Shown here: positions 1 through 26,368 of the stretch, piece after piece | Layout of the letters: every line of letters starts with the position of its first letter | Position numbering within the stretch: the first letter of the stretch is position 1 | Assembly (NCBI GenBank): GCA_947632605.1 | Contig: CANRPX010000001.1 | Span: 116,535 to 180,534 of the forward strand | From: an uncultured Clostridia bacterium | Lineage (GTDB): Bacteria > Bacillota > Clostridia > TANB77 > CAG-508 | Direction: 5' to 3' | Length of the DNA: 64,000 bases | The notes under the pieces: model-generated | The model's database searches: none | Told to the model about the DNA's origin: nothing | The model's input: the letters and a program-made list of their open reading frames with translations, nothing else | Made by a program: the position numbers and the translations under genes

Positions 1-26
1 AAATAAAAATATTAATAATATGTACA

Positions 27-1106
27 ATGGTAATTTTATTAATAGTTGTTGGAATTAGTGTAGTAAAAAAGGCAAATATATTTGAAAGAAAGGCAACAAA
101 ATTGGCAAATACAGAAGGTATTACAGTTGTGCCAACAATGAATGACACAATATCAACAGACAGCAGTTGGTGTGGGACATTTCAATTAGTTTGGAATGAT
201 ATGAAAAATGAAGTTGTAAAAGGAGATATTGTATTTAATCCTCAGTTAGAAATGGTAGAAAATTTAAATAAAGAGGATTTTAATGAATCAATGCTTTCAG
301 AGGATTATTATTTTAAGATTTATGGATTAAAGACTTTGGAATTAAAAGAACAAATAGAAAACGGAATAAAAGAAAAATTTAATCAAACAAGTGATATAAT
401 AGATGATTTTGATTGGTCAGAAAGTAGTTTAGAAGATCCTAATGATGCTTATACAAGAAGATATTTTTTCTATACAATGCTATATAGAAAATTTGAATTT
501 TTGAATGCTTTTGACAAATTAGAAAATGGAATGTTTGGTGATAAATATAACAATATAGAATATTTTGGAATAGATGAAAATACTGAAAATTATGTAGGAA
601 ATCAAATTACAGTTTTATATTATAATTCAAAAGATGATTTTGCAATATTAATAGATACTAAAACAAATGACGAAGTGATATTCTGTAAAAATCCCATAGG
701 AAATAATTTCAATGATATATATATAAATATGAATGATGAATCTTCAAAATATACTGGAAGTAAATCTTTTGAAAATGTAGATGAGTTTAAAGCTCCTAAA
801 TTAACATTTAATGAAAAAAGAGAATACACAGAACTAGCACAAAAGAAATTTAAGACAGCTGATCCAATTTATGATACAGCAGAAATACAAAAAGCCATAC
901 AAACAATACAATTTTCTTTAGATGAAAAAGGCGGAGAAATAAAAAGTGAAGCTTCAATTTTGATGGTTACCGCAGGTATGAAAATAGAAAAAGATGAACC
1001 AAGATACTTTTATGTAGATGATACATTTGCAATATTTTTAAGAGAAAAAGGAAAATCAAAACCATATTTTGCAGGAAGAGTAGATGATATAACAAAATTT
1101 CAATAA
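27..1106 (+). CDS. Serpin-family protease inhibitor with N-terminal hydrophobic anchor
   Basis: Serpin-like hinge and C-terminal motifs (DEKGGEIKSEASILMVTAG, FYVDDTFAIFLRE, KPYFAGRVDDI). The N-terminus is hydrophobic. There is no in-frame stop between the window start and the ATG at 27, so the true start may lie upstream. Confidence 0.6.
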   Translation: MVILLIVVGISVVKKANIFERKATKLANTEGITVVPTMNDTISTDSSWCGTFQLVWNDMKNEVVKGDIVFNPQLEMVENLNKEDFNESMLSEDYYFKIYGLKTLELKEQIENGIKEKFNQTSDIIDDFDWSESSLEDPNDAYTRRYFFYTMLYRKFEFLNAFDKLENGMFGDKYNNIEYFGIDENTENYVGNQITVLYYNSKDDFAILIDTKTNDEVIFCKNPIGNNFNDIYINMNDESSKYTGSKSFENVDEFKAPKLTFNEKREYTELAQKKFKTADPIYDTAEIQKAIQTIQFSLDEKGGEIKSEASILMVTAGMKIEKDEPRYFYVDDTFAIFLREKGKSKPYFAGRVDDITKFQ

Positions 1107-1184
1107 ATTTAGTACTATGAGTTTAAAATAGATATGTCGCAGTATTTATAATTATTGAAAAACATCATTATAAGGGGAAATATA

Positions 1185-1754
1185 GTGAAAATTAAAAAGA
1201 TATTTTTAGTTAGTATATCAGTATTATTAATTATGCTATTATTTTTTATAATATATTATATATATTATGTTTCAAATACAAGAACATTTAATATTTATGA
1301 ATATGAATATAGCAAAGGTATAATCTATTTAGATTTGGATGGAGATAATATTGATGAAAAAATAAATTTTAATGGAAAATATATTGAAATTAATGAGAAA
1401 AATTATGTAATCAATAAATATTTTAAGGAAAATAGCAATACAAATAATGTTGATGATGAAATAACTTTAGAAAAAGAATATACTAATAATTTTCAGTATA
1501 TTCTTGATTTGAATAATGATGGATATTTAGAGATTATACATAGAACCTATACTGACTCTGTATCACCTATTACAAATATATATACCATATATAATTATAA
1601 AAATAATAATTTAATTGAAATTGGGAAAATATCAATATTTGGAAGTATTCCTAATGACTTGAAAGTATTTAAAAACACTTTAAAATTTAAATATTGGTTA
1701 TATGAGTCACCTAGAGATTTAAAAAAAACTTATACTCTTAAACTAAATGTATAG
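1185..1754 (+). CDS. Hypothetical membrane-anchored protein
   Basis: ORF with an N-terminal TM helix. GTG at 1185 lies 7 nt after AAGGGG; the track start at 1155 lacks an RBS. Contains DxDGD / DLNNDG calcium-site-like motifs. No family recognised. Confidence 0.5.
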   Translation: MKIKKIFLVSISVLLIMLLFFIIYYIYYVSNTRTFNIYEYEYSKGIIYLDLDGDNIDEKINFNGKYIEINEKNYVINKYFKENSNTNNVDDEITLEKEYTNNFQYILDLNNDGYLEIIHRTYTDSVSPITNIYTIYNYKNNNLIEIGKISIFGSIPNDLKVFKNTLKFKYWLYESPRDLKKTYTLKLNV

Positions 1755-1806
1755 CTAGCATAGTTATAAAGAAATATAAAATCTATATTCTTTAGATAAT
1801 TCTATA

Positions 1807-1833
1807 AAAGGCGTTTTAGCCTTTTATTTTTTT
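1807..1833 (+). terminator. Rho-independent terminator (AT-rich backbone type)
   Basis: aaaggc-gtttta-gccttt hairpin followed by a T-run. Confidence 0.5.
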
Positions 1834-1907
1834 ATTTCAATATGTTTCTGTAAATTACTTTAAAATAAACTTTTATAAAAATGAAAGTAACAGGTTAAAA
1901 TGCTTAA

Positions 1908-1929
1908 GGGGGCCCATAGTAGGACCCCC
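1908..1929 (-). terminator. GC-rich hairpin terminator of foreign gene A
   Basis: gggggcc-catagta-ggaccccc. On the minus strand it is followed by ttaagcatttt, about 40 nt after the stop at 1969. Confidence 0.5.
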
Positions 1930-1968
1930 AGTTTGAGTGTTAACGAGTGACAGATTGAAATTGGTTGA

Positions 1969-2916
1969 TTAGACATTCGCAAAGAATTTGCGAATCGCTG
2001 CAAGAATGCCGCCATGTTCCTTTACGGTAACGTTCCCGTGGGAATCAACGGTGTTGTTGCTTTCCACATTCGTATGCATCGCTGAAAAGTCGACCTTCTC
2101 GAAAGCCTTGCGGATGTTCTCCGGTGTCACTTCGCAGAAGTGGTTATCCGGAGTACAGATCTGTAAGGTGAACGACATTGCATACTTCTCCCAGTCGGGA
2201 GGGGTAATGGTTCGCATCAAGAGGCCACGAACCACATTCTCGGAAACGGACACCGTGAAAGCATAGGGGTGATCCGCACTGTAATGCCCACACGGGGAAA
2301 GGATGATCTGGTCGTCGGGAATCTTGGAGCAGGAAAAACCTTCAAAGGTATACCCAGGGAAGTCCTCCTCAAAGAGCTTCTTGAGAGTCCTAAAAAGGTC
2401 CATCCGGGGATCATATTCCTGCAGTTCATTTTCCCAATTGCCATCTTTGTACATACTGAACGGACAGTTCCTAATGGAGCAGCCATCACAGTTTTCCTTG
2501 GAAGGCATATAGCCAGAAGCTCTGCGGTTCCCACGACAGGACAAAATCTTGAAGTATCTGATTACTTCATCCTGCCGGTTCACGATGTCAAAAGGCTGAT
2601 AGTAGCCACCACCGATCATACTGCCACCACCCCAAAAGTACCCAATGAGCCAGTTGGCTTGGAGGATGTAATCGTGGGCAGGAACTACGCCATTCATGAT
2701 TTTCTCGAGGTCATCCGGATGGATGTCCACAAAGAAAGGTCCACGATAGTGATGGAGAAGCAGGGGAGATCCGGGCAGCGGAGCCTGGGTATAGAAGAAA
2801 CGTCCCTCAGGCGAGATGTGGATGTGGTCAAGGCCGATGTACTGATCGACGATTGCGGAGAGTTCGGTTGCGAACTCCTGGATGTGAATGTTGCTGGCGA
2901 TGTCTTTGCTGTTCAT
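1969..2916 (-). CDS. Hypothetical Cys- and Gly-rich protein (foreign cassette A), 315 aa
   Basis: GC-shifted ORF (28/60 G+C at 2521-2580). ATG at 2914-2916 is preceded by TTAGGAGG. Contains GGGSMIGGGYY and a CDGCSIRNC cluster. No family recognised. Confidence 0.7.
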   Translation of the reverse strand: MNSKDIASNIHIQEFATELSAIVDQYIGLDHIHISPEGRFFYTQAPLPGSPLLLHHYRGPFFVDIHPDDLEKIMNGVVPAHDYILQANWLIGYFWGGGSMIGGGYYQPFDIVNRQDEVIRYFKILSCRGNRRASGYMPSKENCDGCSIRNCPFSMYKDGNWENELQEYDPRMDLFRTLKKLFEEDFPGYTFEGFSCSKIPDDQIILSPCGHYSADHPYAFTVSVSENVVRGLLMRTITPPDWEKYAMSFTLQICTPDNHFCEVTPENIRKAFEKVDFSAMHTNVESNNTVDSHGNVTVKEHGGILAAIRKFFANV

Positions 2917-3083
2917 AATGTAACCTCCTAATTTTGTTTTTTTTGAGAAACAGCTACAATATACCCAATTCAATCTGCATAAATATTAACATTTCAATGT
3001 TCTGTCTCCAAAGAATATCTTTTGATGAAAAAACATAGAGCTGTTAAAACTTACACGAGACTAAATAAGATATACCTATAATT

Positions 3084-3112
3084 ATTATACCATATTTTAC
3101 ATAAAATGTTAA
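3084..3112 (-). promoter_or_regulatory. Sigma-A-type promoter of cassette A
   Basis: Minus-strand TTAACA, 17 nt, TATAAT with extended -10 (TGGTATAAT). Confidence 0.55.
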
Positions 3113-3138
3113 CATTTGTTACAAAAGTATATTTTTAG

Positions 3139-3167
3139 TTGAAAATTCATATATTTTATAGTATAAT
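3139..3167 (+). promoter_or_regulatory. Sigma-A-type promoter of MYG1-like gene (cassette B)
   Basis: TTGAAA, 17 nt, TATAAT. It lies back to back with the cassette A promoter. Confidence 0.55.
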
Positions 3168-3177
3168 GGAAAAAGTA

Positions 3178-3193
3178 TGCTAGATTTCTAGCA
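3178..3193. promoter_or_regulatory. Inverted repeat at the start of the cassette B leader (possible operator)
   Basis: TGCTAGA-tt-TCTAGCA, about 10 nt downstream of the -10 box. Confidence 0.3.
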
Positions 3194-3291
3194 CTTTTAA
3201 TATAACTCCTATTTGCAACAATAGGGTTGACATAGATTGTAAGTTAGTAGTAACAAACAACAACTGAACCAATAAGTAGGAGGAAAAAAAC

Positions 3292-4227
3292 ATGATTATT
3301 GGTGTAGAAAAAACTCGGAATAATCGCCCATTAACTTTCGGAACACATAATGGAATCTTCCATTGCGATGAGGTTATTGGCATAGCGATACTCGAGCTTG
3401 CAAACATGAATACTGATGCGTATGTTGTAAGAACAAGAAACAAGGATGTGCTAAATGGGCTTGATGTAGTAATCGATGTTGGAGGAAAAAAGTACGATCA
3501 CCATCAGGCTGGATTTGATCAAAGAAGATCAACAGGGGAAAAGTATGCTAGTGCTGGTTTGATTTGGCGAGATTTTGCGGAAAAAGCTATTAAAAATGTG
3601 GCAATCGAAGGGAAAATGTCCATTGATGATGATGAAATTAGTGTAGTCAAAGGGCAAATCGATAAGGAAATAATCATTTTTGTCGATATGGAAGACAATG
3701 GAAAAGAAGTTGGCACTCATATATTCAGCTTTATCCCAAGTTTTTACCCTGCGTGGTTTCAAGATCCCGAATATGATGAAGCTTTCATGAAGGTTGAAAG
3801 AATTGTATTTTCGATTATGAGGGAGATTATTAAGGAAAAAATCGTGCAGATTGCAACTCGGAAAGAGATTGAGAAAAAATGCAATTCTGCTAATGATGGA
3901 GTATTAGAAATTCCTGTGCAGACCATGCCTTGGCAAGAGAGTGTAGTCAATTTTAACGAAACACATGCCCAGAAGATAAACTTCGTAATTTTCCCGTATC
4001 CTGATGGAGGTTGGGCGGCACAATGTGTTCCACCATCTATGGAGAAAAAGTTCGAACAGCGCATTCCTTTTCCAAAAAAATGGGCTGGTGGAAATGAAAA
4101 AACCCTGCCCGAAGTTTCCGGAATATCGGATGCAACATTTTGCCATAATGGACGATTTTTTGTGAGAGCAAAAACAAAAGAATCTGTCTTAAAAATGTGC
4201 AAGATAGCATCTAGTGAGTTGCTTTAG
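3292..4227 (+). CDS. MYG1/UPF0160-family metal-dependent hydrolase (DHH superfamily), foreign cassette B
   Basis: N-terminal FGTHNGIFHCDE and YDHHQ motifs typical of MYG1/UPF0160. AGGAGG RBS. G+C above the backbone (29/60 at 3961-4020). Confidence 0.8.
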   Translation: MIIGVEKTRNNRPLTFGTHNGIFHCDEVIGIAILELANMNTDAYVVRTRNKDVLNGLDVVIDVGGKKYDHHQAGFDQRRSTGEKYASAGLIWRDFAEKAIKNVAIEGKMSIDDDEISVVKGQIDKEIIIFVDMEDNGKEVGTHIFSFIPSFYPAWFQDPEYDEAFMKVERIVFSIMREIIKEKIVQIATRKEIEKKCNSANDGVLEIPVQTMPWQESVVNFNETHAQKINFVIFPYPDGGWAAQCVPPSMEKKFEQRIPFPKKWAGGNEKTLPEVSGISDATFCHNGRFFVRAKTKESVLKMCKIASSELL

Positions 4228-4242
4228 GCCAACAAATTATGT

Positions 4243-4272
4243 GACAGGCGAGTGGTGTACCGCTCGCCTGTC
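4243..4272 (+). terminator. GC-rich hairpin terminator of cassette B
   Basis: gacaggcgag-N10-ctcgcctgtc followed by ttcttaatttt. Confidence 0.6.
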
Positions 4273-4296
4273 TTCTTAATTTTATTATAAAAAAAT

Positions 4297-5157
4297 TTAA
4301 ATCTTATCAGTTATAAAAATAGTAACATATTTTATGTTTAGAGATCTATGTTGTAATATATGTTTTTTTACATCTTTTTCAATTAAAGTTGCTTCTTTTA
4401 ATGTCAAATTTGGATTTAATACTAAAGTTAATTGTAACTTGTAATAAGAACCATATTTTATTAAAGTTATTTTCAAATTATTTATATTTTCTTCTTTTAA
4501 TATGACTTCTTTAACACGATTAATTAATTCTTCATTTTCTTCAACTTCACCAATGACAGATAGAGAATTTTCAACAATAATATTATAAGATGTTTTAAAT
4601 ACAATTATACCTATTAAAACAGATCCAACAATATCTGAATATTTTAAAATAGGAAGCTGTTTTGTAAATTGTAAAAGAATAGTTATAATCATTACACCAA
4701 TTGTAGAATATAAATCAGCTGAAGATTCTTTTACAGAAGTTATTAATAGTTGACTATGAGTTTTTGTTCCAACTTTATGCATAATTAAAATAGCAACTAA
4801 TTTTAAAAGAAAAACAATTATTAAAAGTACTAAAACTGAAATAGGAGGGGTAATAGTTTCTTTTCCAAAAGCATTTACTATAATAAATATTGCAAGAGCT
4901 AGAAGTATAATTCCAACAAATAAATTGGTTAGATATTCAACTTTTCCAAATCCAAAAGGATGACTTTTTGTTGGCTTCTTTTTTGTTATTTTTTCTGTTC
5001 CAATACAAACTACATCTGTGAAAAAATCACTAAATGTATGCATTCCATCTGCAAATAAAGAACTTAATCCGAAAAACATACCTCCAAATAATTTAATAAT
5101 TGAAATTATTAAATTATTTATCATACTATAAGTTAATACTTTAGATTCCTCTTTCAT
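4297..5157 (-). CDS. Cation diffusion facilitator (CDF) family transporter
   Basis: Six TM segments, HTFSDFFTD and SSADLYS motifs, C-terminal cytoplasmic domain. Confidence 0.8.
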   Translation of the reverse strand: MKEESKVLTYSMINNLIISIIKLFGGMFFGLSSLFADGMHTFSDFFTDVVCIGTEKITKKKPTKSHPFGFGKVEYLTNLFVGIILLALAIFIIVNAFGKETITPPISVLVLLIIVFLLKLVAILIMHKVGTKTHSQLLITSVKESSADLYSTIGVMIITILLQFTKQLPILKYSDIVGSVLIGIIVFKTSYNIIVENSLSVIGEVEENEELINRVKEVILKEENINNLKITLIKYGSYYKLQLTLVLNPNLTLKEATLIEKDVKKHILQHRSLNIKYVTIFITDKI

Positions 5158-5317
5158 ATATTTTCCTCCTAAATTGATTTGTTTAATTATATTATAAAAA
5201 AAGCTAAAATTCTATATTGTCAAATAAATGTAATGAAAAATAAATAAAATTGATTTTATTGTTAATAATACTTTGATGTGTTATAATATGAAAAAATAAA
5301 AAAGGAATAATATTATT

Positions 5318-5791
5318 ATGAATATAGGGTTTTATGCTGGAAGTTTTGATCCATTTACAAATGGTCATTTGCATGTAATAAAAAGATCAGAAAAATTATT
5401 TGATAAAGTTGTTGTAGGTATTGGAATACATCCAAGCAAAACTAGAAGATATAACAATGAAATAATGAAAAATGCTATTAAAGAAGTATTAAAACGAGAA
5501 AAAATAAAAAATGTTGAAGTAATTACTTATGATAATCTTTCAGTTGATGCAGCAAAATCACATAATGCTAATTTTCTTATTCGTGGTATTAGAAATGGAA
5601 TGGATTATGATTATGAAGAAAATCTTGCTTCAATAAATGAAGAAATTTCAGGGTTAGATACTATTTATATAAGAGCAGGAAGATTAGGAAATATAAGTTC
5701 AAGTATTGTTATGGAGCTTGTGAGAAATGGAAAAGATGTTTCAAAATATGTTCCAAAAGAAATTCTAAAAATAATAAATGAAGATAATTAA
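5318..5791 (+). CDS. coaD: Phosphopantetheine adenylyltransferase-like nucleotidyltransferase
   Basis: GSFDPFTNGH nucleotidyltransferase motif. Size about 157 aa. Confidence 0.7.
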   Translation: MNIGFYAGSFDPFTNGHLHVIKRSEKLFDKVVVGIGIHPSKTRRYNNEIMKNAIKEVLKREKIKNVEVITYDNLSVDAAKSHNANFLIRGIRNGMDYDYEENLASINEEISGLDTIYIRAGRLGNISSSIVMELVRNGKDVSKYVPKEILKIINEDN

Positions 5792-5807
5792 AAAAGTAGG
5801 AGAAATC

Positions 5808-6587
5808 CTACTTTAAATTTTTTTCTAAAACTTTTATTACTTCATTATGAACAATACCATTGCTAATAATTGCACCATTTATATTAGTATCATATCTTTG
5901 TTCATTGCCAAATAAATCTGTAACTTTTCCACCAGCTTCTTCAACGATAACTTTAACTGCTGCTATATCGCAGTTTTTGTGCTTAGTACCGGGAAAAATT
6001 GATAAAGAAAAATCTCCATTAGCAATACACATACATGCTCTTATGACACTTCCAATGCTAACAAAATAAGAGTTTTTGCTAAGTTCTGATATTGTACTAT
6101 ATATATTATAATCAGATTTTGACCACATATCGTAATTGCAGACTGTTTTTATATTATTTAATTCATAATCATTTACATGTATTTTTTCATTATTTCTATA
6201 AGCACCTTTACCTTTAATTGCAGAATAAAGATTGTCTGTAAATGGATCATAAACAACACCAATTAAAGGAGCACCATCAATTACTAATGCAAGAGAAAAA
6301 ACAGCTACTGGTATATGTCTTGCATACATAGCAGTACCATCAACTGGATCACATACCCACACATAATTAGATTTACCAAATTGTTCTTCTTCACCATCAA
6401 CTGAATGTGTAGGAAAATTTTCTTTTACTTTTTTTACTAAAAAACTATTAATTTCTTTATCTGCTTTTGTGACAATTGTTTGATCAAATTTATAATCAGC
6501 ACCATTATTTTCTTTAAAATATTTATGCATAATTTTTCCAGCTTCAATAGCTATTTCTTTAGCAAATTTTAAATATTCTTCTTCCAT
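5808..6587 (-). CDS. Inositol monophosphatase family protein
   Basis: WVCDPVDGT and GEEE metal-binding motifs. Confidence 0.8.
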   Translation of the reverse strand: MEEEYLKFAKEIAIEAGKIMHKYFKENNGADYKFDQTIVTKADKEINSFLVKKVKENFPTHSVDGEEEQFGKSNYVWVCDPVDGTAMYARHIPVAVFSLALVIDGAPLIGVVYDPFTDNLYSAIKGKGAYRNNEKIHVNDYELNNIKTVCNYDMWSKSDYNIYSTISELSKNSYFVSIGSVIRACMCIANGDFSLSIFPGTKHKNCDIAAVKVIVEEAGGKVTDLFGNEQRYDTNINGAIISNGIVHNEVIKVLEKNLK

Positions 6588-6716
6588 ATTTTCTCCTTAA
6601 TAATAATTAACTTTAAAATATAAATTTATTATAACGTTAATTTATTGATGTTTCAATAATCTTGTGTTAAAATAATATAGCAGAATTGTAAGATTAAATA
6701 TAAAAGGAATGAAAAT

Positions 6717-7157
6717 ATGGAAATAATTTCAAACTCTGAAGAAGAAACAATTGAACTTGGAAAAAAAGTAGCTAAAAATTTAGAAAAAGGAAATATAATT
6801 ATTCTTTCTGGGAATTTAGGTTCTGGTAAGACTAAATTCACTGAAGGAGTATTAACTTATTTTGGATTACAAAATGAAATTTCTAGCCCAACATTTACTA
6901 TTGTTAATGAATATAATGCTAATAATATTAATATATATCATTTTGATGTTTATAGATTGAGTGATGTTGATGAATTTGAAGCAATTGGTGGAGAAGAATA
7001 TTTTGAAAAAGGAATTTGCATAATAGAATGGGGAGAATTGATAGAACCAATACTTCCTGAAAATTATGTAAAAATTACATTTTCTAGAAACTTAGAAAAT
7101 GAAAATACAAGAAATATTAAAATAGATTGTTTTGGAGATATTAATTTAGATTTATAA
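6717..7157 (+). CDS. tsaE: tRNA t6A37 biosynthesis ATPase TsaE
   Basis: LSGNLGSGKT P-loop, SPTFTIVNEY motif, about 146 aa. Confidence 0.85.
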   Translation: MEIISNSEEETIELGKKVAKNLEKGNIIILSGNLGSGKTKFTEGVLTYFGLQNEISSPTFTIVNEYNANNINIYHFDVYRLSDVDEFEAIGGEEYFEKGICIIEWGELIEPILPENYVKITFSRNLENENTRNIKIDCFGDINLDL

Positions 7158-7162
7158 AAAAA

Positions 7163-7192
7163 GCAAGGGACCAGTTAGGTCCCTGCTTTTTT
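7163..7192. terminator. GC-rich bidirectional hairpin between tsaE and cassette C
   Basis: gcaagggacc-agtta-ggtccctgc flanked by an A-run and a T-run. The stop codon of the minus-strand gene lies in the loop. Confidence 0.6.
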
Positions 7193-7732
7193 CTGATATA
7201 ACACAGTGAGATCGAATTGGATACTCGACCGGATGAAGAAATGGAATTGCTTTGTTTCGTAATGATATCCTGTGCAAAACTGATTGGCATGTTTCTCCCA
7301 GTCAAAATCTGCACGAATCAAAGTAAATCTATAAATAGAATCATTGTGCAAATTGAGATAAGAAGAATAACGAGTTGTAATAATTGTCGATTGATAGTGT
7401 GCCAAAAAATGTGCCAGCTCAAATGGATCGTTTGACACTTTAAATATGGCTGTGATGTTTTCGGGAACAGGTAAGGAAAAGGACTCTCCGATGTGGAGCT
7501 TCGTATAGATTTCCATAAAACCCGATATTCCGTCAATGTCAAATTTTTCCTTTAAAAATGAATCAAAAACATTCTTAGGAGCAGAGACACTCACATTTAA
7601 GGATGAATTATCAATTGTTTGCAATTTGTCTACAGTTTCACATTTGGATAAGTTACGATGGTCACGTTCGGTTTCTTCAAAAGGATTTTCCAAATTAGTT
7701 AAAATATGGAAAATATTAGAATCTTCATTCAT
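7175..7732 (-). CDS. Hypothetical protein (foreign cassette C), about 185 aa
   Basis: G+C above the backbone (24/60 at 7261-7320). AAGGAGG lies 7 nt before the second ATG (7730-7732). No family recognised. The last six codons are encoded by the terminator arm and T-run. Confidence 0.6.
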   Translation of the reverse strand: MNEDSNIFHILTNLENPFEETERDHRNLSKCETVDKLQTIDNSSLNVSVSAPKNVFDSFLKEKFDIDGISGFMEIYTKLHIGESFSLPVPENITAIFKVSNDPFELAHFLAHYQSTIITTRYSSYLNLHNDSIYRFTLIRADFDWEKHANQFCTGYHYETKQFHFFIRSSIQFDLTVLYQKKAGT

Positions 7733-7800
7733 ACGCATACCTCCTTTTAAGTTTATAGTTCGAATGAAGTGTTGTGTTTAGAACACGGTGTTACAAAATT

Positions 7801-7829
7801 ATATTAACATAAAATCGACATAAAATCAA
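7801..7829 (-). promoter_or_regulatory. Putative promoter of cassette C
   Basis: Minus-strand TTGATT, 17 nt, TAATAT. Confidence 0.45.
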
Positions 7830-7889
7830 ATTATGGTTTACAAATTAGATAAAATATTATAAAATATTACAGTAATTGGAGGAATAATA

Positions 7890-8555
7890 ATGAAAATTTT
7901 AGCAATAGATACATCAAGTAAAATATGTTCTGTGGCTTTGTTAGAAGATAATGTAGTTATAGATAAAAATGAATTAGATGATGGTAAAACTCATTCTGAA
8001 AATCTTATGCCATTATTAGATGAGTTACTTAAGAGAAATAAAATTAATATTAAACAAATTGAATTATTAGCTTGCTCAGTTGGACCTGGTTCTTTTACTG
8101 GAATAAGAATTGGAGTAGCTACAATAAAACCAATAGCAGAAGTTTTAAATATTAAAATAGCAAGTGTTACTTCTTTAGAGACATTAGCTAGAATTATAGA
8201 AGAAAATGATACAATAGTTTCATTAATAGATGCTAGAAATAATCAAGTATATTGTGGTATTTTTGATAAAAATTATAATAAAAAAGAAGATTATATTGCA
8301 GATGATATAAATGAAGCAATCGAACATATAAAAAAGTATAATGATATTATTTGTGTTGGTGATGGTGCAATATTACATAAAGATTTATTAAATGAAAAAA
8401 TAAAAGATATTAAATTTGCCGAAGAAAATAATGAATCAGCTGTGAATGTTGGAAAAATTGGATATAAAAAGTTTTTAGAAAATGATTTATGTTCAGCAGA
8501 TTCTATTGTTCCAATTTATTTAAGAAAATCACAAGCAGAACGACTAAAAAAATAA
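7890..8555 (+). CDS. tsaB: tRNA t6A37 biosynthesis protein TsaB
   Basis: MKILAIDTSS start, GPGSFTGIRIG motif. Confidence 0.85.
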   Translation: MKILAIDTSSKICSVALLEDNVVIDKNELDDGKTHSENLMPLLDELLKRNKINIKQIELLACSVGPGSFTGIRIGVATIKPIAEVLNIKIASVTSLETLARIIEENDTIVSLIDARNNQVYCGIFDKNYNKKEDYIADDINEAIEHIKKYNDIICVGDGAILHKDLLNEKIKDIKFAEENNESAVNVGKIGYKKFLENDLCSADSIVPIYLRKSQAERLKK

Positions 8556-9038
8556 ATGACAATATTTAAATTAAAAATAGGAGAAAATAAAATTGAAAAT
8601 ATGAGTATTACTATTAAAAAAATGAATTTAAAAGATTATGAAAAGATAAAAGATAATCTAAAAAAAGACTTTGATGACTTTTGGACTCCAACTGTTTTAG
8701 AAAGTGAATTAAAAAATAAAAATTCTAAATATATTGTGGCAAAAGAAAACGAAGAAATTCTTGGATTTGCTGGAATAATTATTTTGCCTGATGATGTAGA
8801 AATTACAAATATTGTTGTAAAAAAAGAAGAAAGAAAAAAAGGTATAGGAAAAAGTCTTTTAGAGAAAATAATAGAAATATCAAAAGAAACAAAAAGAAAT
8901 ATAATAAGTTTAGAAGTAAATGAAAAAAATTTAGTAGCAATAAATTTATATAAAAAATTTGGATTTGAAAAAGTTGGCCAAAGGAAAAAATATTATAACG
9001 GAACGGATGATGCAGTTATTATGAGTAGAAAAATTTAG
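8556..9038 (+). CDS. rimI: Ribosomal-protein-alanine N-acetyltransferase (GNAT)
   Basis: GNAT motif RKKGIGKSLL. Position after tsaB. An alternative start at 8601 is possible. Confidence 0.75.
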   Translation: MTIFKLKIGENKIENMSITIKKMNLKDYEKIKDNLKKDFDDFWTPTVLESELKNKNSKYIVAKENEEILGFAGIIILPDDVEITNIVVKKEERKKGIGKSLLEKIIEISKETKRNIISLEVNEKNLVAINLYKKFGFEKVGQRKKYYNGTDDAVIMSRKI

Positions 9039-12761: not shown

Positions 12762-12803
12762 TTTTTAATAAATTATATGTTATAAATTTTGTTAGAAAAA
12801 TAT

Positions 12804-12832
12804 TGACAAATTCAATTTTTAAAAATACAATT
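12804..12832 (+). promoter_or_regulatory. Sigma-A promoter of the ABC/GntR operon
   Basis: TTGACA, 17 nt, TACAAT. Confidence 0.6.
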
Positions 12833-12860
12833 GTACTAGCACAAATAGTACAATTGTATT
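12826..12860. promoter_or_regulatory. Perfect 14-bp inverted repeat, candidate GntR-family operator
   Basis: ATACAATTGTACTA-gcacaaa-TAGTACAATTGTAT overlaps the -10 box. It contains the GT-N-AC core typical of GntR operators. Confidence 0.55.
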
Positions 12861-12912
12861 TTTATTTTACAATAAAATATAAATAACTTTTGTTATTTAG
12901 AAAGGGGATTTT

Positions 12913-13809
12913 ATGATTAAAATAAGTAATTTAAGTAAATCATTTGAGAATAAAAAAGTTTTAGAAAATTTAAATTGCAATATTAAAACAAATTCTATAT
13001 ATGGATTTGTAGGAGCAAATGGTGCTGGAAAATCAACTTTACTTAGAATAATTAATGATGTATTTAAAGCCGATTCTGGTACAGTTGAAATTGATGGAAA
13101 AAGTATAGAAAACAATCAAGAACTTAAGCAAAAACTAGTTTTTGTTCCAGATGATTTATATTTTTTTCCAAATTATACATTAAATGAAATGGCAAAATTT
13201 TATAATTCGATGTATAAAAATTTTGATATGGAATACTTAAAAAAATTAGCTGAAACTTTAAAGCTAGATATGAATTCAAAAATTCAAAACTTTTCAAAAG
13301 GTATGAAAAGGCAGTGTGCTTTAATATGTGCAGTTTGCACAAATGCAGACTATATGTTTTTTGATGAAACTTTTGATGGAGTAGATCCAGTTATTAGAGG
13401 ATTATTAAAAAAGATTATAGCAAAACAAATGGAGAAAAAAGAAACTACAATAATTATGACAAGTCATAATTTGAGAGAACTAGAAGATATTTGTGATAAT
13501 TTAGCATTAATTTATAAAGGTGGAATTCTTTTTGAGAGTGAAGTAAACACATTGAAAACAAATATGTTTAAAGTTCAAGTTTCTTTAAAAGAAGATTTTG
13601 ATAAAGATACATTTAAAGATTTAGAAATTTTAAATTTCAAAAAAGTTGGAAGTGTTGCAACAATAATTATAAAGGAAGATAAAGAAAAGGCAATAGAAAA
13701 ATTGCAAAATTTAAATCCAATAATTTTAGATGTATTACCAGTAACATTAGAAGAAATGTTTGTTTATGAAATGGAGGTGCTAGGATATGAATTTAACCAA
13801 GTATTTTAA
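12913..13809 (+). CDS. ABC transporter ATP-binding protein
   Basis: Walker A GANGAGKST, signature-like FSKGMKRQ, Walker B FFDETFDG. Confidence 0.85.
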   Translation: MIKISNLSKSFENKKVLENLNCNIKTNSIYGFVGANGAGKSTLLRIINDVFKADSGTVEIDGKSIENNQELKQKLVFVPDDLYFFPNYTLNEMAKFYNSMYKNFDMEYLKKLAETLKLDMNSKIQNFSKGMKRQCALICAVCTNADYMFFDETFDGVDPVIRGLLKKIIAKQMEKKETTIIMTSHNLRELEDICDNLALIYKGGILFESEVNTLKTNMFKVQVSLKEDFDKDTFKDLEILNFKKVGSVATIIIKEDKEKAIEKLQNLNPIILDVLPVTLEEMFVYEMEVLGYEFNQVF

Positions 13810-15802
13810 TCTTAATTATTTAAAAGAAAATTTCAAAAAATCTAGGGGAATACTTTTATTAATAACAATTATAATTCCTTTATTAACATTATTTAGCATT
13901 TTATTCATAAATAAGCCTGCAAGTTATACAAAGATTGTAGAACTAATGGAAATTAGTTGGGTTAATATGTTTGGAATGTATGTAATACCAATTGCAATTT
14001 CATTTATATTATTTGGATATGTTTATAAAAAAACAAGTGTAGACTTTATAAATTCAATGCCTATTAATAGAAAAACAATTTTTATCACAAACACCATTGG
14101 AGGAATTTTACTTATAACATTAATTCAAATTTTAACCGCAGTAACACTTTTATTAAGCTCAATATTTATAAAAGAAATAATGATTTTTACTGGAATGATA
14201 ATAGATGTGTTTATTATTATGTGGATTGCATATTTATTTATGTTTTTTGTAACAAATCTTGCAATGACATTATCTGGAACATTTTTAACACAAATTGCTT
14301 TGACTATGATAATTTTATTTATAATACCATTTTGTTTAAGTACATTTGATTTATTAAGAAATCAAAAAATTATAGAAGAAGAATATACAGAAAGTACTCT
14401 TCAAAATAGTGAAAACAATAATAATATAACTATTATGGAAAACATTGATAATAAAGAATATACACTTCCATTTGATTTAATTTGGAATACTGATTTATCA
14501 TTTTCAAATACAAGAAATGCTAAAATGTTAGTTTTGGGAATAGTATATTTTTGTTTAGGACTATATTTATTTCAAAAACGTAAAATGGAAAATGCAGAAG
14601 AATCTTTTTCAAAAGTAAAAGTGCATTTATTTGTTAAAGCTTTAACAGTATTTCCTTTATTAGTTTTAGTAAATTTAGCTAGTGAGTCACCAAATAAATT
14701 TTTAATTTTATTAATTATAATTTACTATTTTGTTTATGATTACATTGTAAGAAGAAAAGTAAAATTTAAATATTCTATTTTAGGACTTATAATAACGTTA
14801 GCAGTTTCACAAGGTATAATTGTAGGAATTGAAAATTATTATCCAATAAATACCTCATATAGAGATAATATGGAAATAGCAAGAGAAGATGTAGATGAAG
14901 TAAGTTTAAATTTTGATGATAATAGTTATTATTTGCGTGAACAACCGGAAAACGATTATTATATGAATAATAAAGAATTAATCGATTTAATTTTTGATGC
15001 TTCAGAAAGATCTTATGAATTTAGAGAAGAAATTAAGAGTATAGATGTTATAGATAGTGTAAACTCAATGACTTCACTTTATGGAAATTTTAAATGTAAA
15101 GATGGAAGAATACTTAGATTTTATGCAGAAATTTTAGAAGAAGATGAAGAAAAGTTTTTAGATATTCTAGCTCAAGATGAAAACTTTATGAAATCTATAA
15201 AAGATAAATATATGGAAAAAAGTGTTATTACTTTTAATGGTCATGTTATGCTAGATATTGGTGAAAAAATAGAATTAGAAGGAAAAAATGCAATTAATAA
15301 TATGACTTTAAAAGAATATTATACATTATATAGTAAAGAAAGTTTAAATGGCTATTATCCTTTATACTTCAATTACTATAAAAATCATAATTTAGTATCA
15401 CTTTATGTTCCAATTAATATAAGTAATGAAGTATTAAAAACAATAGCAGATAATGAAAATGAATTTATAGATCAAAATTTTTATGTTGGAGAAAATTCAA
15501 GCGGAAATAGATTTAATATTGGTATAATGGCTGGACCTTTAGGATATGACAGAAATGATGTTGAATTTTCAAATTTTAGTGGTAACTTTTTTTACACATT
15601 AGATTTAATGGAAGAATTCATTAATGAGAACAAAAATGAAAAAATAGATCCAAGTCAAAAATGTTATGCAATTCAAATTACTGGAATTAATTCAGACTAT
15701 AACAATGAAAGAATTTTCTTTACAAATAAAACCGAAGAAATTGATTCAATAATTAGAAAAGAAATGTCATTTTATCAAGAAACATATTATTATGATTTTT
15801 AA
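13787..15802 (+). CDS. ABC-2-type multi-pass membrane protein with a large C-terminal soluble domain
   Basis: Overlaps the ATPase stop. Multiple TM helices in the first ~350 aa, then a non-membrane domain of about 320 aa. Confidence 0.6.
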   Translation: MNLTKYFNLNYLKENFKKSRGILLLITIIIPLLTLFSILFINKPASYTKIVELMEISWVNMFGMYVIPIAISFILFGYVYKKTSVDFINSMPINRKTIFITNTIGGILLITLIQILTAVTLLLSSIFIKEIMIFTGMIIDVFIIMWIAYLFMFFVTNLAMTLSGTFLTQIALTMIILFIIPFCLSTFDLLRNQKIIEEEYTESTLQNSENNNNITIMENIDNKEYTLPFDLIWNTDLSFSNTRNAKMLVLGIVYFCLGLYLFQKRKMENAEESFSKVKVHLFVKALTVFPLLVLVNLASESPNKFLILLIIIYYFVYDYIVRRKVKFKYSILGLIITLAVSQGIIVGIENYYPINTSYRDNMEIAREDVDEVSLNFDDNSYYLREQPENDYYMNNKELIDLIFDASERSYEFREEIKSIDVIDSVNSMTSLYGNFKCKDGRILRFYAEILEEDEEKFLDILAQDENFMKSIKDKYMEKSVITFNGHVMLDIGEKIELEGKNAINNMTLKEYYTLYSKESLNGYYPLYFNYYKNHNLVSLYVPINISNEVLKTIADNENEFIDQNFYVGENSSGNRFNIGIMAGPLGYDRNDVEFSNFSGNFFYTLDLMEEFINENKNEKIDPSQKCYAIQITGINSDYNNERIFFTNKTEEIDSIIRKEMSFYQETYYYDF

Positions 15803-19773: not shown

Positions 19774-19802
19774 TTGTGTATTTTAGAAAATAATGGTATA
19801 AT
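19774..19802 (+). promoter_or_regulatory. Promoter of the large ncRNA
   Basis: TTGTGT, 17 nt, TATAAT with extended -10 TGG. Confidence 0.55.
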
Positions 19803-19808
19803 ATTATT

Positions 19809-20370
19809 GTTGGTGCACTATTCTAGTGTATACTCCTGTTATGAGGGTGGGCCTAAAAATCTACTAAAAAGTATTATCAGTCGAAGTTTTTCGGAGTACT
19901 GCGCGTTACGCCCAGTTGTGCGTGGCTTTGGAAAAAAGATTTTAGGATAGTTTATAATGGCATATAAATGATTCCTGATTTCATTGAGACTTATTCATTT
20001 GAATAGGTAAAACCATATAGATAATAATATGGTGGTAATGACTGTCTTGAGTGATTTATTGGAATTAATTCGATAATCATAAAATTAATTTGGCCAAATT
20101 GATTTTATGATTGAATTATGAAACTTAGATTGCAAAAGGGACTAATAACAGGCTAGGATATTAAAAGAAAATTTCTAGAGTGTTTGCTTAGAATAAAATA
20201 AGCATGGAAACTCGGGGATTAAGGTACGGATTTAAGTGGTGATCTGGCGACATTTTGAAAAAAATGTGGAGCTTTTAAATGGAAACAGCTTTTTAGTAAT
20301 AAAAAGTAATGCTTCGAGAAACTCTGCTAGACCTAAACCGTAAAGTTTACTCGAGTTTTCACCAATATAC
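19809..20370 (+). ncRNA. Large structured non-coding RNA, OLE-like (tentative)
   Basis: About 560 nt with no ORF and G+C above the backbone. The 5' TTGGTG pairs with the 3' CACCAA. Contains a 17-bp hairpin at 20077-20110 and several smaller hairpins. It has its own promoter and lies directly upstream of a small 4-TM protein, as for OLE/oapA. Confidence 0.5.
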
Positions 20371-20409
20371 TTATAAAAAACGATAACTTAATTTGGAGAA
20401 AAATATAAT

Positions 20410-20940
20410 ATGAAAGAAAAACAAAAAGGTAATAATAATTCGTGGGTAATAGTAATAGCTATTACCACATTTATTTTATCATTATTTTTTTCGTTTGTAT
20501 CAAATACAGCTATATCAAAGCTTAATATAATAGCAGGATTAATTGTTTTAATAATAGTAATTTTAATTGGTGTAGTATTTGATTTAATAGGTGTCGCTGT
20601 TACGGTTGCAAATGAAGAAGATTTTCATGCACAAGCTAGTAAAAAAATAAAAGGTGCAAAAACATCTATAAAAATGATAAGAAATTCAGCAAAAGTATCT
20701 AACTTTTGTGCTGATGTAATTGGAGATATATGTGGAGTATTAAGTGGTGCAATAAGTGCGATGATTGCTCTTAAAATTACTCAAAATTATGGAGTAAATG
20801 AAAATATACAAATAATTTTTAGTGCAATAGTCGCATCTATTACAGTAGGAGGAAAAGCAATAACAAAAGAAATTGCAAAAAGAAATTCAACAAAGATAGT
20901 TACAATAATAAGTAAATTTGTTTCTTTTGGAGAAAAATAA
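20410..20940 (+). CDS. oapA: Small 4-TM membrane protein, OapA-like (tentative)
   Basis: 176 aa with four predicted TM helices. Position immediately after the large ncRNA. Confidence 0.5.
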   Translation: MKEKQKGNNNSWVIVIAITTFILSLFFSFVSNTAISKLNIIAGLIVLIIVILIGVVFDLIGVAVTVANEEDFHAQASKKIKGAKTSIKMIRNSAKVSNFCADVIGDICGVLSGAISAMIALKITQNYGVNENIQIIFSAIVASITVGGKAITKEIAKRNSTKIVTIISKFVSFGEK

Positions 20941-21054: not shown

Positions 21055-21705
21055 TTACAGGATTACGTGTGTCTCCACAAATTCATCGTGCCCGACGCGG
21101 TACACTCCCTTGGTAGTGATGATGAGATAGTCGCCGATTTGAAGTTGAGTGCTTTCAGCCTCGCCATTCTCATCAGTTTCCATCCACTCATCAACGCAGG
21201 CAGTGATGCCAGAATCGTAGAGCTCCTTGGTGACCTCGATGCAGCGGCGTTCTTCAGAGGCAGTGGTGACCAGGAGAAGATCTTTCTTCATGTTCGCGAA
21301 CATATCAGCGAGCATTTTCTTATCTGTCTCGTCGGCGATACCACTCAGGATGGTGCAGAGGTTGATGAGACCTTCGGCCGAATTGGTGCCTACGACTTTG
21401 ACGTCTTTGGCGCCGGAAACTTTGGAGAATTTCCAGCAATAGCAATCGGGCCGGCCGGACATCAGAACCTTGCCACCGATGACACGAAGTACCGTCTGGA
21501 AAACGGCTTCATCGTAGATGTTACCGGAGGGCTGCTCCTTGGTGCTGACACACTGCTTGAAGATGAGACCCATGAGGCCGAGATCCGACCACTTGGGAAA
21601 AACGATGTTTTGCATCTCAAGCTTCAGGCAGTCCCGCTGGCAGTCCAGCTCAGCGCTCTTGTTGATGATCTCTTGGGTGACTTGCTGTTTGTTTAATTTA
21701 GCCAT
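21055..21705 (-). CDS. Hypothetical protein (foreign cassette D), 216 aa
   Basis: 31/60 G+C at 21061-21120. TTAGGAGG lies 8 nt before the ATG. No family recognised. Confidence 0.65.
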   Translation of the reverse strand: MAKLNKQQVTQEIINKSAELDCQRDCLKLEMQNIVFPKWSDLGLMGLIFKQCVSTKEQPSGNIYDEAVFQTVLRVIGGKVLMSGRPDCYCWKFSKVSGAKDVKVVGTNSAEGLINLCTILSGIADETDKKMLADMFANMKKDLLLVTTASEERRCIEVTKELYDSGITACVDEWMETDENGEAESTQLQIGDYLIITTKGVYRVGHDEFVETHVIL

Positions 21706-25851: not shown

Positions 25852-26280
25852 TCAATCGTCAACCAAGACGAAAATGAACGGCTCTTCGGAATATTCTTTG
25901 GTAATGTCCTCTAAGCTAACCTTTGCGGCAGGTTCCTTGTCATCGGGTTTGTGCTCGAAGCTCCCGTCAGGGTTTCTCCTTGCAACATGGAAGTCATCAT
26001 ATTCCATACCCCAAAGGGAACGATACGCGTACCAGCCCCAGAGCCAGAATGCGGTTTTGCCGTTGGTTTCTTCGATGGAACTTACCTGCCGAACACGGAT
26101 GCCGTATCGTTTCAGAGTTTCCACGAAGGAGTTAACAGGACTGTTATCAAAGTACCGACCTGTGTCGGGATCGCGGTAGCGGTCGAGGACTACAACCTCT
26201 TCAACACCGATTGCAAACCCGAGGCAGTTAAATTTTGAGATGTTCATTGTCTTGTTTGCTTGGTCTGCTGTAAAAAACAT
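25852..26280 (-). CDS. Hypothetical protein (foreign cassette E), 142 aa
   Basis: 30/60 G+C at 25981-26040. AAGGAGG lies 9 nt before the ATG at 26278-26280. No family recognised. Confidence 0.65.
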   Translation of the reverse strand: MFFTADQANKTMNISKFNCLGFAIGVEEVVVLDRYRDPDTGRYFDNSPVNSFVETLKRYGIRVRQVSSIEETNGKTAFWLWGWYAYRSLWGMEYDDFHVARRNPDGSFEHKPDDKEPAAKVSLEDITKEYSEEPFIFVLVDD

Positions 26281-26339
26281 ACGTAATAACCTCCTTGCCA
26301 TAGTGGCGATGCGTGTTTTGTTAAAAAGCTTACATAATA

Positions 26340-26368
26340 ATTATACCATATTTTATATATAAAATCAA
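26340..26368 (-). promoter_or_regulatory. Promoter of cassette E
   Basis: Minus-strand TTGATT, 17 nt, TATAAT with extended -10 TGG. Confidence 0.5.

Follow-up and report, generated by a model that had tools for sequence, protein, structure and literature searches.

A 2.4-kb region near one end of a 64,000-nucleotide (nt) stretch of an uncultured Clostridia bacterium genome (GenBank assembly GCA_947632605.1, contig CANRPX010000001.1, positions 116,535 to 180,534; the whole stretch is hereafter the window) contains two divergent genes: a minus-strand gene for a cysteine-rich protein of 315 residues, here called cys315, and a plus-strand gene of the MYG1/UPF0160 family. This region probably consists of two self-contained, monocistronic units, acquired independently by horizontal transfer, that lie head-to-head, rather than a conserved functional pair. 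Unit 1 (~3112 to 1908, minus strand) would be a mobile orphan cassette with its own extended −10 promoter, a hairpin leader of ~160 nt, cys315 and a GC-rich terminator hairpin. Unit 2 (~3139 to 4272, plus strand) would comprise its own promoter, a leader with a 5′ hairpin and an anti-Shine-Dalgarno (anti-SD) sequence, MYG1 and its own terminator. Both units would have landed in a variable spot beside the cation-efflux (CDF) gene of a gut Bacillota with a GC content of ~26%. An earlier note on this DNA had proposed a two-gene module acting in defence or on nucleic acids; the region should not be filed as such, and the pairing would be an accident of one species.

The two genes do not co-occur elsewhere. 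A tblastn search for MYG1 within ~10 kb was negative at all 20 independent cys315 loci (L002–L007, obtained by exact-protein look-up, and L008–L021, from GTDB species genomes). Conversely, cys315 was found in none of the 49 MYG1 loci screened (47 metagenome loci, L047–L093, plus L022 and L025) and, by gene listing, in none of L023, L024, L026 and L027. Apart from the window, the pair is found at a single locus, L001, whose 99% identity and synteny show it to be the same species. The earlier note had envisaged a co-regulated, co-functional module and had proposed checking co-occurrence across genomes, naming an absence of conserved pairing as evidence against its own proposal; no conserved pairing was found from either side, and the module was not borne out. 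Nor did its suggested defence role find support, as neither protein matches a defence-system model in PADLOC-DB v2 at E ≤ 0.1.

The insertion site itself is variable. The two genes are surrounded by housekeeping genes, including the CDF gene. In two sister species (L094 and L096), CDF, TsaE and TsaB are 83–89% identical to those of the window (CDF, 84–86%) and the gene order tsaE-tsaB-rimI-lon is kept. Neither cys315 nor MYG1 lies next to CDF in these species, where small uncharacterised open reading frames (ORFs; L094) or a NERD/HRDC protein (L096) are found instead.

Base composition sets both genes apart from their host and from each other. The window has a GC content of 26.3%, and its core genes show extreme codon bias, with a GC content at third codon positions (GC3) of ~0.08–0.09. 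The neighbouring core genes likewise have a GC3 of 0.08–0.09, compared with a GC of 0.50 and GC3 of 0.62 for cys315 and a GC of 0.39 and GC3 of 0.33 for MYG1. A GC-rich block at 1908–2935 (49.6% GC) has sharp edges to DNA of 19–26% GC. The codon CGG occurs once among 16,112 core codons of the window, against 430 occurrences of AGA, and twice each in cys315 and MYG1. Every foreign cassette in the window (cys315, 1969–2916; MYG1, 3292–4227; o187, 7175–7738; o216, 21055–21705; o149, 25852–26280) has one or two CGG codons, along with numerous other codons of the CGN, CCG and GCG types, and no tRNA-Arg gene was found within the window. Extremely AT-rich genomes can thus carry several GC-rich single-gene cassettes full of host-rare codons, which raises the question of how, or whether, these are translated. 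The evidence that cys315 and MYG1 are both foreign to their AT-rich host is strong; the earlier note had called them foreign, and GC3, the CGG codons and absence from the site in two sister species uphold this. Their differing compositions (GC3 of 0.62 versus 0.33) argue for separate origins.

The anatomy of the locus agrees throughout with what the earlier note had read from the letters. The spacer between the divergent ORFs (2917–3291) is 375 nt long and AT-rich (25.6% GC). The two top promoter-like matches in 1500–4800 face away from each other (3112–3084, minus strand; 3139–3167, plus strand), each matching the consensus at 11 of 12 positions, and exactly 26 nt separate their −35 boxes; scan and composition therefore confirm the promoters, the gap and the spacer as described. 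Both GC-rich hairpins are present, although the one at 1908–1929 has a weak T-tail and so was missed by the terminator scan, and all four protein motifs named in the note lie in the predicted ORFs. The features of the two units are as follows.

1908–1929, minus strand: 3′ hairpin of cys315, GC-rich, 8 bp, 39 nt past the stop codon (GGGGGUCCUACUAUGGGCCCCC)
1969–2916, minus strand: cys315, ORF of 315 residues containing GGGSMIGGGYY and CDGCSIRNC
2924–2929, minus strand: Shine-Dalgarno (SD) sequence AGGAGG of cys315, 7 nt 5′ of the ATG, read from the sequence
2958–3076, minus strand: type B leader hairpin, long and imperfect, ~120 nt, filling most of the cys315 5′ leader
3084–3112, minus strand: cys315 promoter, −35 TTAACA, 17-nt spacer TTTTATGTAAAATATGG, extended −10 TGgTATAAT, 11/12
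3113–3138, no strand: junction of 26 nt between the −35 boxes, part of neither conserved unit
3139–3167, plus strand: MYG1 promoter, TTGAAA, 17 nt, TATAAT, 11/12
3178–3193, plus strand: MYG1 leader palindrome or 5′ hairpin, TGCTAGA-tt-TCTAGCA
3206–3226, plus strand: second MYG1 leader hairpin, CTCCTAT...ATAGGG, with an anti-SD-like CUCCU in its 5′ arm
3278–3283, plus strand: SD sequence AGGAGG of MYG1, read from the sequence
3292–4227, plus strand: MYG1/UPF0160, DHH-superfamily phosphoesterase of 311 residues containing FGTHNGIFHCDE and YDHHQ
4243–4272, plus strand: MYG1 intrinsic terminator found by scan, stem of 13 bp (9 of them GC) followed by a T-rich tail

In other genomes, each of the two genes keeps its own control region, and cys315 is monocistronic at all of its loci. 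The promoter of cys315 recurs (TTGnnnTTTTATGTAAAnnTATGgTATAAT) ~70–190 nt 5′ of the start codon in 15 of 19 cys315 loci, and nucleotide similarity between the window and most cys315 loci starts at 3106–3118, at the −35 box; judged from these alignments, the promoter type travels with its gene. On the other side of the junction, the −10-proximal part of the MYG1 promoter (TTTTATaGTATAAT) and the second, CUCCU-containing hairpin are common to the closest MYG1 relatives; in the minimum free energy (MFE) fold of the window sequence, CUCCU pairs with the MYG1 SD sequence instead. The palindrome at 3178–3193 is found in eight MYG1 loci (L022, L025, L047, L049, L050, L052, L055 and L060), with two-sided, pairing-preserving changes in three of its seven pairs (for example, TACTAAA/TTTAGTA in L022). 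The inverted repeat pointed out in the earlier note is thus a real conserved element with compensatory changes, and is either a hairpin at the 5′ end of the mRNA or an operator bound by a repressor. As each promoter and leader is inherited elsewhere with its own gene, the divergent promoters are best read as the junction of two units and not as shared control.

The earlier note recognised no family for the 315-residue protein, and profile hidden Markov model (HMM), PDB and Foldseek searches agree. No match to cys315 was found in Pfam, NCBIfam, PHROGs or PADLOC, and none of 41 family members matches a Pfam family. PDB sequences gave no match with either single-sequence or 41-sequence profile queries, and an AlphaFold2 model built from the family alignment (predicted local distance difference test, 91; predicted template modelling score, 0.84) had no Foldseek match at E < 0.1 in PDB or BFVD. 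Searches of the 2.9 million viral contigs of IMG/VR with cys315, o216 and o149 found no relatives. There are 81 unnamed homologues of ~300 residues, and when 1.84 billion representatives were searched exhaustively with an HMM, only 121 clusters (at 50% identity) of the family were returned; one odd match from the deep HMM search (P0298, 4133 residues) is a cadherin-repeat protein and was discarded as spurious. cys315 is a small, narrowly distributed, mobile and uncharacterised four-cysteine family with no detectable relative in the fold and family libraries searched.

Conservation within the family hints at its biochemistry. An alignment of 41 sequences contains four invariant cysteines (C127, C143, C146 and C151; C-x15-C-x2-C-x4-C-P), a Gly-rich segment (GYxWGGGSMxGGGYYQP) with several invariant and other nearly invariant residues, and H56, R58, D69 and R171, which are invariant or nearly so. 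The four cysteines are most likely ligands of a Zn or Fe-S centre, and the conserved His, Asp and Arg residues together with those of the Gly-rich loop suggest an enzyme. The protein is probably soluble and cytoplasmic. The conserved residues were also considered as an R-S-E motif like that of ADP-ribosyltransferases; this was rejected, since that fold would have shown in Foldseek. The family deserves a Pfam-style description and offers a compact, confidently folding target for structural and functional work.

cys315 probably owes its expression level to a strong promoter, with the long leader dampening it. The leader hairpin at 2958–3076 has an MFE of −46.8 kcal/mol (z = −5.2), and none of 200 shuffled sequences was equally stable. 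This type B leader sequence is kept in the window, L007, L008, L014 and L015; 2 of 38 pairs in its aligned consensus fold are compensatory, the sequences being few and highly conserved. In type A leaders, CUCCUUUUGCACCUU pairs with AAGGUG...AAAAGGAG (specifically, CUCCUUUU...GCACCUU lies opposite AAGGUG...AAAAGGAG), sequestering the SD sequence; this fold is not more stable than shuffled sequences (z = −0.66), and 1 of its 19 pairs is compensatory. Leader lengths range from 90 to 190 nt across loci (~160 nt in the window), and the leaders (in two related forms, types A and B) are more conserved than the cys315 proteins themselves. Neither the cys315 nor the MYG1 leader matches a family in Rfam 15; in the window there is no gathering-level Rfam match beyond OLE and tRNAs, and 2850–3320 and the L002 leader gave chance-level matches only, including sub-threshold microRNA-precursor-like ones. 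Mini-ORFs of 3–10 codons occur in the leaders, and the encoded peptides are not conserved. A leader peptide was considered and rejected, the candidate ORF of L002 being broken in L004. The long palindrome is unlikely to be an integron attC site, since it lies 5′ of an ORF with its own promoter; no search with integrase or attC models was made.

Two smaller elements flank this leader and its gene. A perfect palindrome, TATAAT-T-ATTATA (3077–3089), overlaps the cys315 −10 box. It is kept only among the closer cys315 loci, and a copy with one mismatch occurs at the o149 promoter (26333–26345); near-matches in the window number 10 against 4.6 expected, which is not clearly above chance. The palindrome resembles the 7-1-7 PerR/Fur box of Bacillus, and a PerR/Fur-type box at 3077–3089 is a weak lead. 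At the other end of the unit, the 78-nt segment holding the 1908–1929 hairpin has an MFE of −19.7 kcal/mol, and nearly all of 17 homologous cys315 loci have a comparably strong GC-rich hairpin within ~85 nt of the stop codon. Despite its weak T-tail, the hairpin probably terminates the cys315 transcript or stabilises its 3′ end.

The distribution of cys315 points to a mobile gene. All loci are from AT-rich, uncultured gut Clostridia/Bacillota of chicken, rabbit or ruminants. The GC content of cys315 is above that of its host in all loci except L021 (0.36–0.53 versus 0.24–0.35), and the most divergent members are nearest to host composition. Mobility genes lie near it in some genomes. In L009 (the same locus as L002), a block 3′ of priA-def-fmt-cinA-murD places a 643-residue large serine recombinase (Resolvase plus Recombinase), a 472-residue Mob_Pre protein and a 99-residue ORF between murD and cys315, and in L007 NikA-like and TnpV genes are close by. 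The mobility genes of L009 are AT-rich like the host and cys315 alone is GC-rich, so cys315 may itself have been inserted into, or beside, a Tn4451-like element. None of the window ORFs within 1–9000 encodes a recombinase or relaxase, and neither target-site duplications nor repeats were identified at the insertions. cys315 is evidently mobile, spreading as a stand-alone unit among AT-rich gut Clostridia.

Further arrangements were seen at these loci. L020 holds tandem cys315 paralogues, at 6003–7200 (366 residues) and 7311–8400 (346 residues), each with its own TTATGTAAA-type promoter. Just 3′ of the cys315 homologue of L009, at 12800–14000 (L002:4733–6283), lie two GC-rich (0.36–0.43) orphan ORFs of 154 and 319 residues, neither with a Pfam match. 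The 154-residue ORF has a cys315-type promoter motif; GC-rich orphan cassettes thus cluster in other genomes too.

The plus-strand protein is, by profile and alignment, a full-length bacterial member of the known MYG1/UPF0160 family, as the earlier note had recognised. It matches Pfam PF03690 with E = 4.8e-63 (214.1 bits against a cut-off of 22.1), residues 16–306 covering profile positions 2–317 of 318, and aligns with the PDB entry ‘MYG1 exonuclease’ (24ah; E = 6.7e-30) across GTHNGIFHCDE, DVGG, YDHHQ and the C-terminal FCHNG (F-x-H). The catalytic motif columns are invariant in 29 MYG1 relatives, and the closest non-self relative is only 67–68% identical, whereas CDF has relatives at 84–86%. 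Human MYG1 is a 3′-5′ RNA exonuclease of the DHH superfamily (Grover et al. 2019, PMC6582341), and an antiviral role has been reported for yeast MYG1 in a study that terms the bacterial homologues poorly characterised (PMC10089162). By homology to the eukaryotic enzymes, the bacterial MYG1 described here is probably a 3′-5′ RNA exonuclease, with RNA as the presumed substrate.

Of 49 MYG1 loci, 24 have Sua5/TsaC as an immediate neighbour, which lies either upstream and divergent or downstream and convergent, and in the window MYG1 lies 2.5 kb from tsaE-tsaB(-rimI). This recurrence of Sua5/TsaC suggests a functional tie of bacterial MYG1 to threonylcarbamoyladenosine (t6A) and tRNA metabolism or to RNA metabolism. 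To our knowledge, a link between MYG1 and Sua5/TsaC has not been reported. Together, the conserved structured leader and the Sua5/TsaC neighbourhood provide first hints on the biology of bacterial MYG1 and make a role in tRNA or RNA processing testable.

Three of the adjoining Sua5/TsaC genes are themselves unusual, being readable only across three frames (L022:5891–6927, L025:8989–10022 and L047:2164–3194, all minus strand). They come from three species, are 78–86% identical and share both junctions, at each of which the reading frame moves by +1 after a CGG codon. At junction 1, ...TTT CGG A... resumes as C|GGA CAA ACG GTT GGT ATT AGA ATG CCT (GQTVGIRMP); at junction 2, ...(G/A)T(T/A) CGG... 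resumes as C|GGT AGT GTT AAA CTT (GSVKLSDK). Both junctions are candidate sites of programmed +1 frameshifting, where the CGG codon of this essential t6A enzyme would be ‘hungry’ or unassigned.

The other foreign cassettes of the window, o216 (GC3, 0.67), o149 (GC3, 0.54) and o187 (GC3, 0.34), all lie on the minus strand, opposite to the prevailing gene direction. Neither o216 nor o187 has a significant Pfam match, and o149 has only a weak, sub-threshold match to DUF7689. The promoters of o216, o149 and, more weakly, o187 are near-identical to that of cys315 (TTTTATGTAAAwTATGGTATAAT). Within the window this motif is restricted to foreign cassettes, apart from one degenerate match at 4604–4582. 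A shared promoter had been considered as evidence of one common mobile vector for the four cassettes; that claim was toned down, as the motif also occurs at other genes, at MYG1 of other species and in viral contigs.

Their surroundings yielded several further observations. o187 lies between tsaE and tsaB, where L001 (97–99% identical, same species) has 34 bp (5725–5760); the cassette is missing in the sister species L096, and L094 has a 63% identical homologue at the same site (7842–8399), which points to either a polymorphism for presence or absence or a hot spot for insertion. A full-length OLE (ornate large extremophilic) RNA at 19794–20381 on the plus strand (259.7 bits, E = 2e-72) is followed by an ORF for a 176-residue membrane protein (20410–20940, plus strand), possibly an OLE-associated protein, and the o216 cassette sits just past this ORF, ahead of holA. 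At the start of the window, a 359-residue ORF (27–1106, plus strand) has a weak C-terminal serpin match (E = 1e-4, below the Pfam cut-off).

Several points weigh against two independent acquisitions of cys315 and MYG1. With −35 boxes just 26 nt apart, two head-to-head landings so neat would be somewhat surprising. No genome was found with just one of the two genes at the site, and a single event carrying both is possible. The TTATGTAAA spacer motif lies 5′ of cys315 and, elsewhere, of a second MYG1 subfamily, allowing for shared regulation at a distance. The loci also come entirely from metagenome assemblies, many on short contigs, and absence within 10 kb is not equivalent to absence from a genome. 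A co-regulated divergent module, in which a Cys-rich sensor or effector and a MYG1 nuclease act together in defence or stress and move as one island, would account for two adjacent foreign genes with closely spaced divergent promoters, for the lack of both at the site in sister species and for a parallel with the antiviral role of yeast MYG1 (PMC10089162). We nevertheless consider such a module very unlikely, given the lack of co-occurrence in the 20 cys315 loci and in 55 MYG1 loci, compositions as far apart as those of the two genes, control regions inherited separately with their own genes, and the lack of any PADLOC match or of a cys315 relative in IMG/VR. Similarly improbable is a role for cys315 as an inducible resistance or immunity determinant of mobilisable elements, its leader being a translational attenuator that frees the SD sequence on induction. 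Its strong promoter, its position next to a Tn4451-like recombinase/relaxase pair in L009, SD sequestration in type A leaders and, as read from the alignment, an SD-like GGAG, a start codon and a mini-ORF of 3–10 codons in type B leaders are all in keeping with attenuation. However, the mini-ORF peptide is not conserved, the type A fold is no more stable than shuffled sequences, covariation is almost absent, cys315 has no similarity to known resistance or immunity families, and mobility genes are missing around the copy in the window.

A different question is whether cys315, some MYG1 genes, o216, o149 and o187 form one regulon or clade-specific promoter class, TTGnnn(n)TTATGTAAA...TGnTATAAT, possibly with a bound regulator, and would be co-expressed although cys315 and MYG1 are not as a rule physically linked. 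Besides the restriction of the motif to foreign cassettes in the window, it lies in ~714 kb of related loci 5′ of cys315, of MYG1 subfamily 2 and of several other orphan ORFs (many GC-rich, one with an RyR domain). Genes with motif promoters have a median GC3 relative to their locus of +0.03, compared with −0.08 for other genes with TTG/−10 promoters (P = 1e-4, Mann-Whitney), but the loci were chosen for cys315 or MYG1, so that ascertainment bias and the common descent of orthologous promoters affect this enrichment. In L017 and L018 the motif occurs in either orientation with slightly variable spacing, which fits a protein-binding site; no regulator was identified, however, the window’s own MYG1 promoter is without the motif, and viral contigs carry the same spacer about as often as a rough hand estimate for chance in AT-rich DNA. 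A single regulon of this kind is unlikely, and a common regulon or common cassette class is a minority possibility. Somewhat less doubtful, and still tentative, is a joint reading in which cys315 founds a new family of metal- or Fe-S-dependent enzymes or sensors, is carried as a self-contained cassette, and belongs to a wider, so far undescribed class of orphan cassettes that are GC-rich and have promoters of the TTATGTAAA type. If so, this class would also hold o216, o149, o187, the RyR-domain gene and other orphans, would insert between housekeeping genes and might share a regulon. As its proteins diverge to ~50% identity, the cys315 cassette would retain a coding sequence rich in GC and, 5′ of it, strongly conserved control elements: a promoter, a possible operator, and a leader that either forms the long hairpin or sequesters the SD sequence.

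Parts of the two units resemble known systems. The C...CxxCx(4-5)C motifs of WhiB-like and FNR-type proteins are Cys4 metal or Fe-S sensor motifs. cys315 is similar to them in that its four invariant cysteines comprise a CxxC pair, another Cys close to it that precedes a Pro, and a single distant Cys. It differs in size, 315 residues being much larger, and in its two further conserved domains, and no sequence or fold similarity to these proteins was found. The mobilisable transposons Tn4451 and Tn4453 encode a large serine recombinase (TnpX) and a Mob/Pre relaxase (TnpZ). The cys315 homologue of L009/L002 resembles the cargo of such elements, lying directly past a recombinase and Mob_Pre pair, whereas cys315 of the window has neither a recombinase nor a relaxase in its flanking ORFs. 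The window MYG1 is like the known family in covering the profile end to end and in aligning at GTHNGxFHCDE, DVGG, DHH and the C-terminal His motif; it stands apart through its conserved structured 5′ leader, the link of its relatives to Sua5/TsaC and its foreignness in the host. Phage ‘morons’, a term associated with Hendrix and colleagues, are reportedly autonomous units of promoter, gene and terminator that have inserted between resident genes and differ from them in base composition. The two units described here differ from morons in their chromosomal housekeeping context, which is not a prophage, and, for cys315, in the lack of a PHROG match and (as for o216 and o149) of a relative in IMG/VR. 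They are like morons in that each has its own promoter, its own terminator and a deviant composition, lies between resident genes and varies in presence or absence among close relatives.

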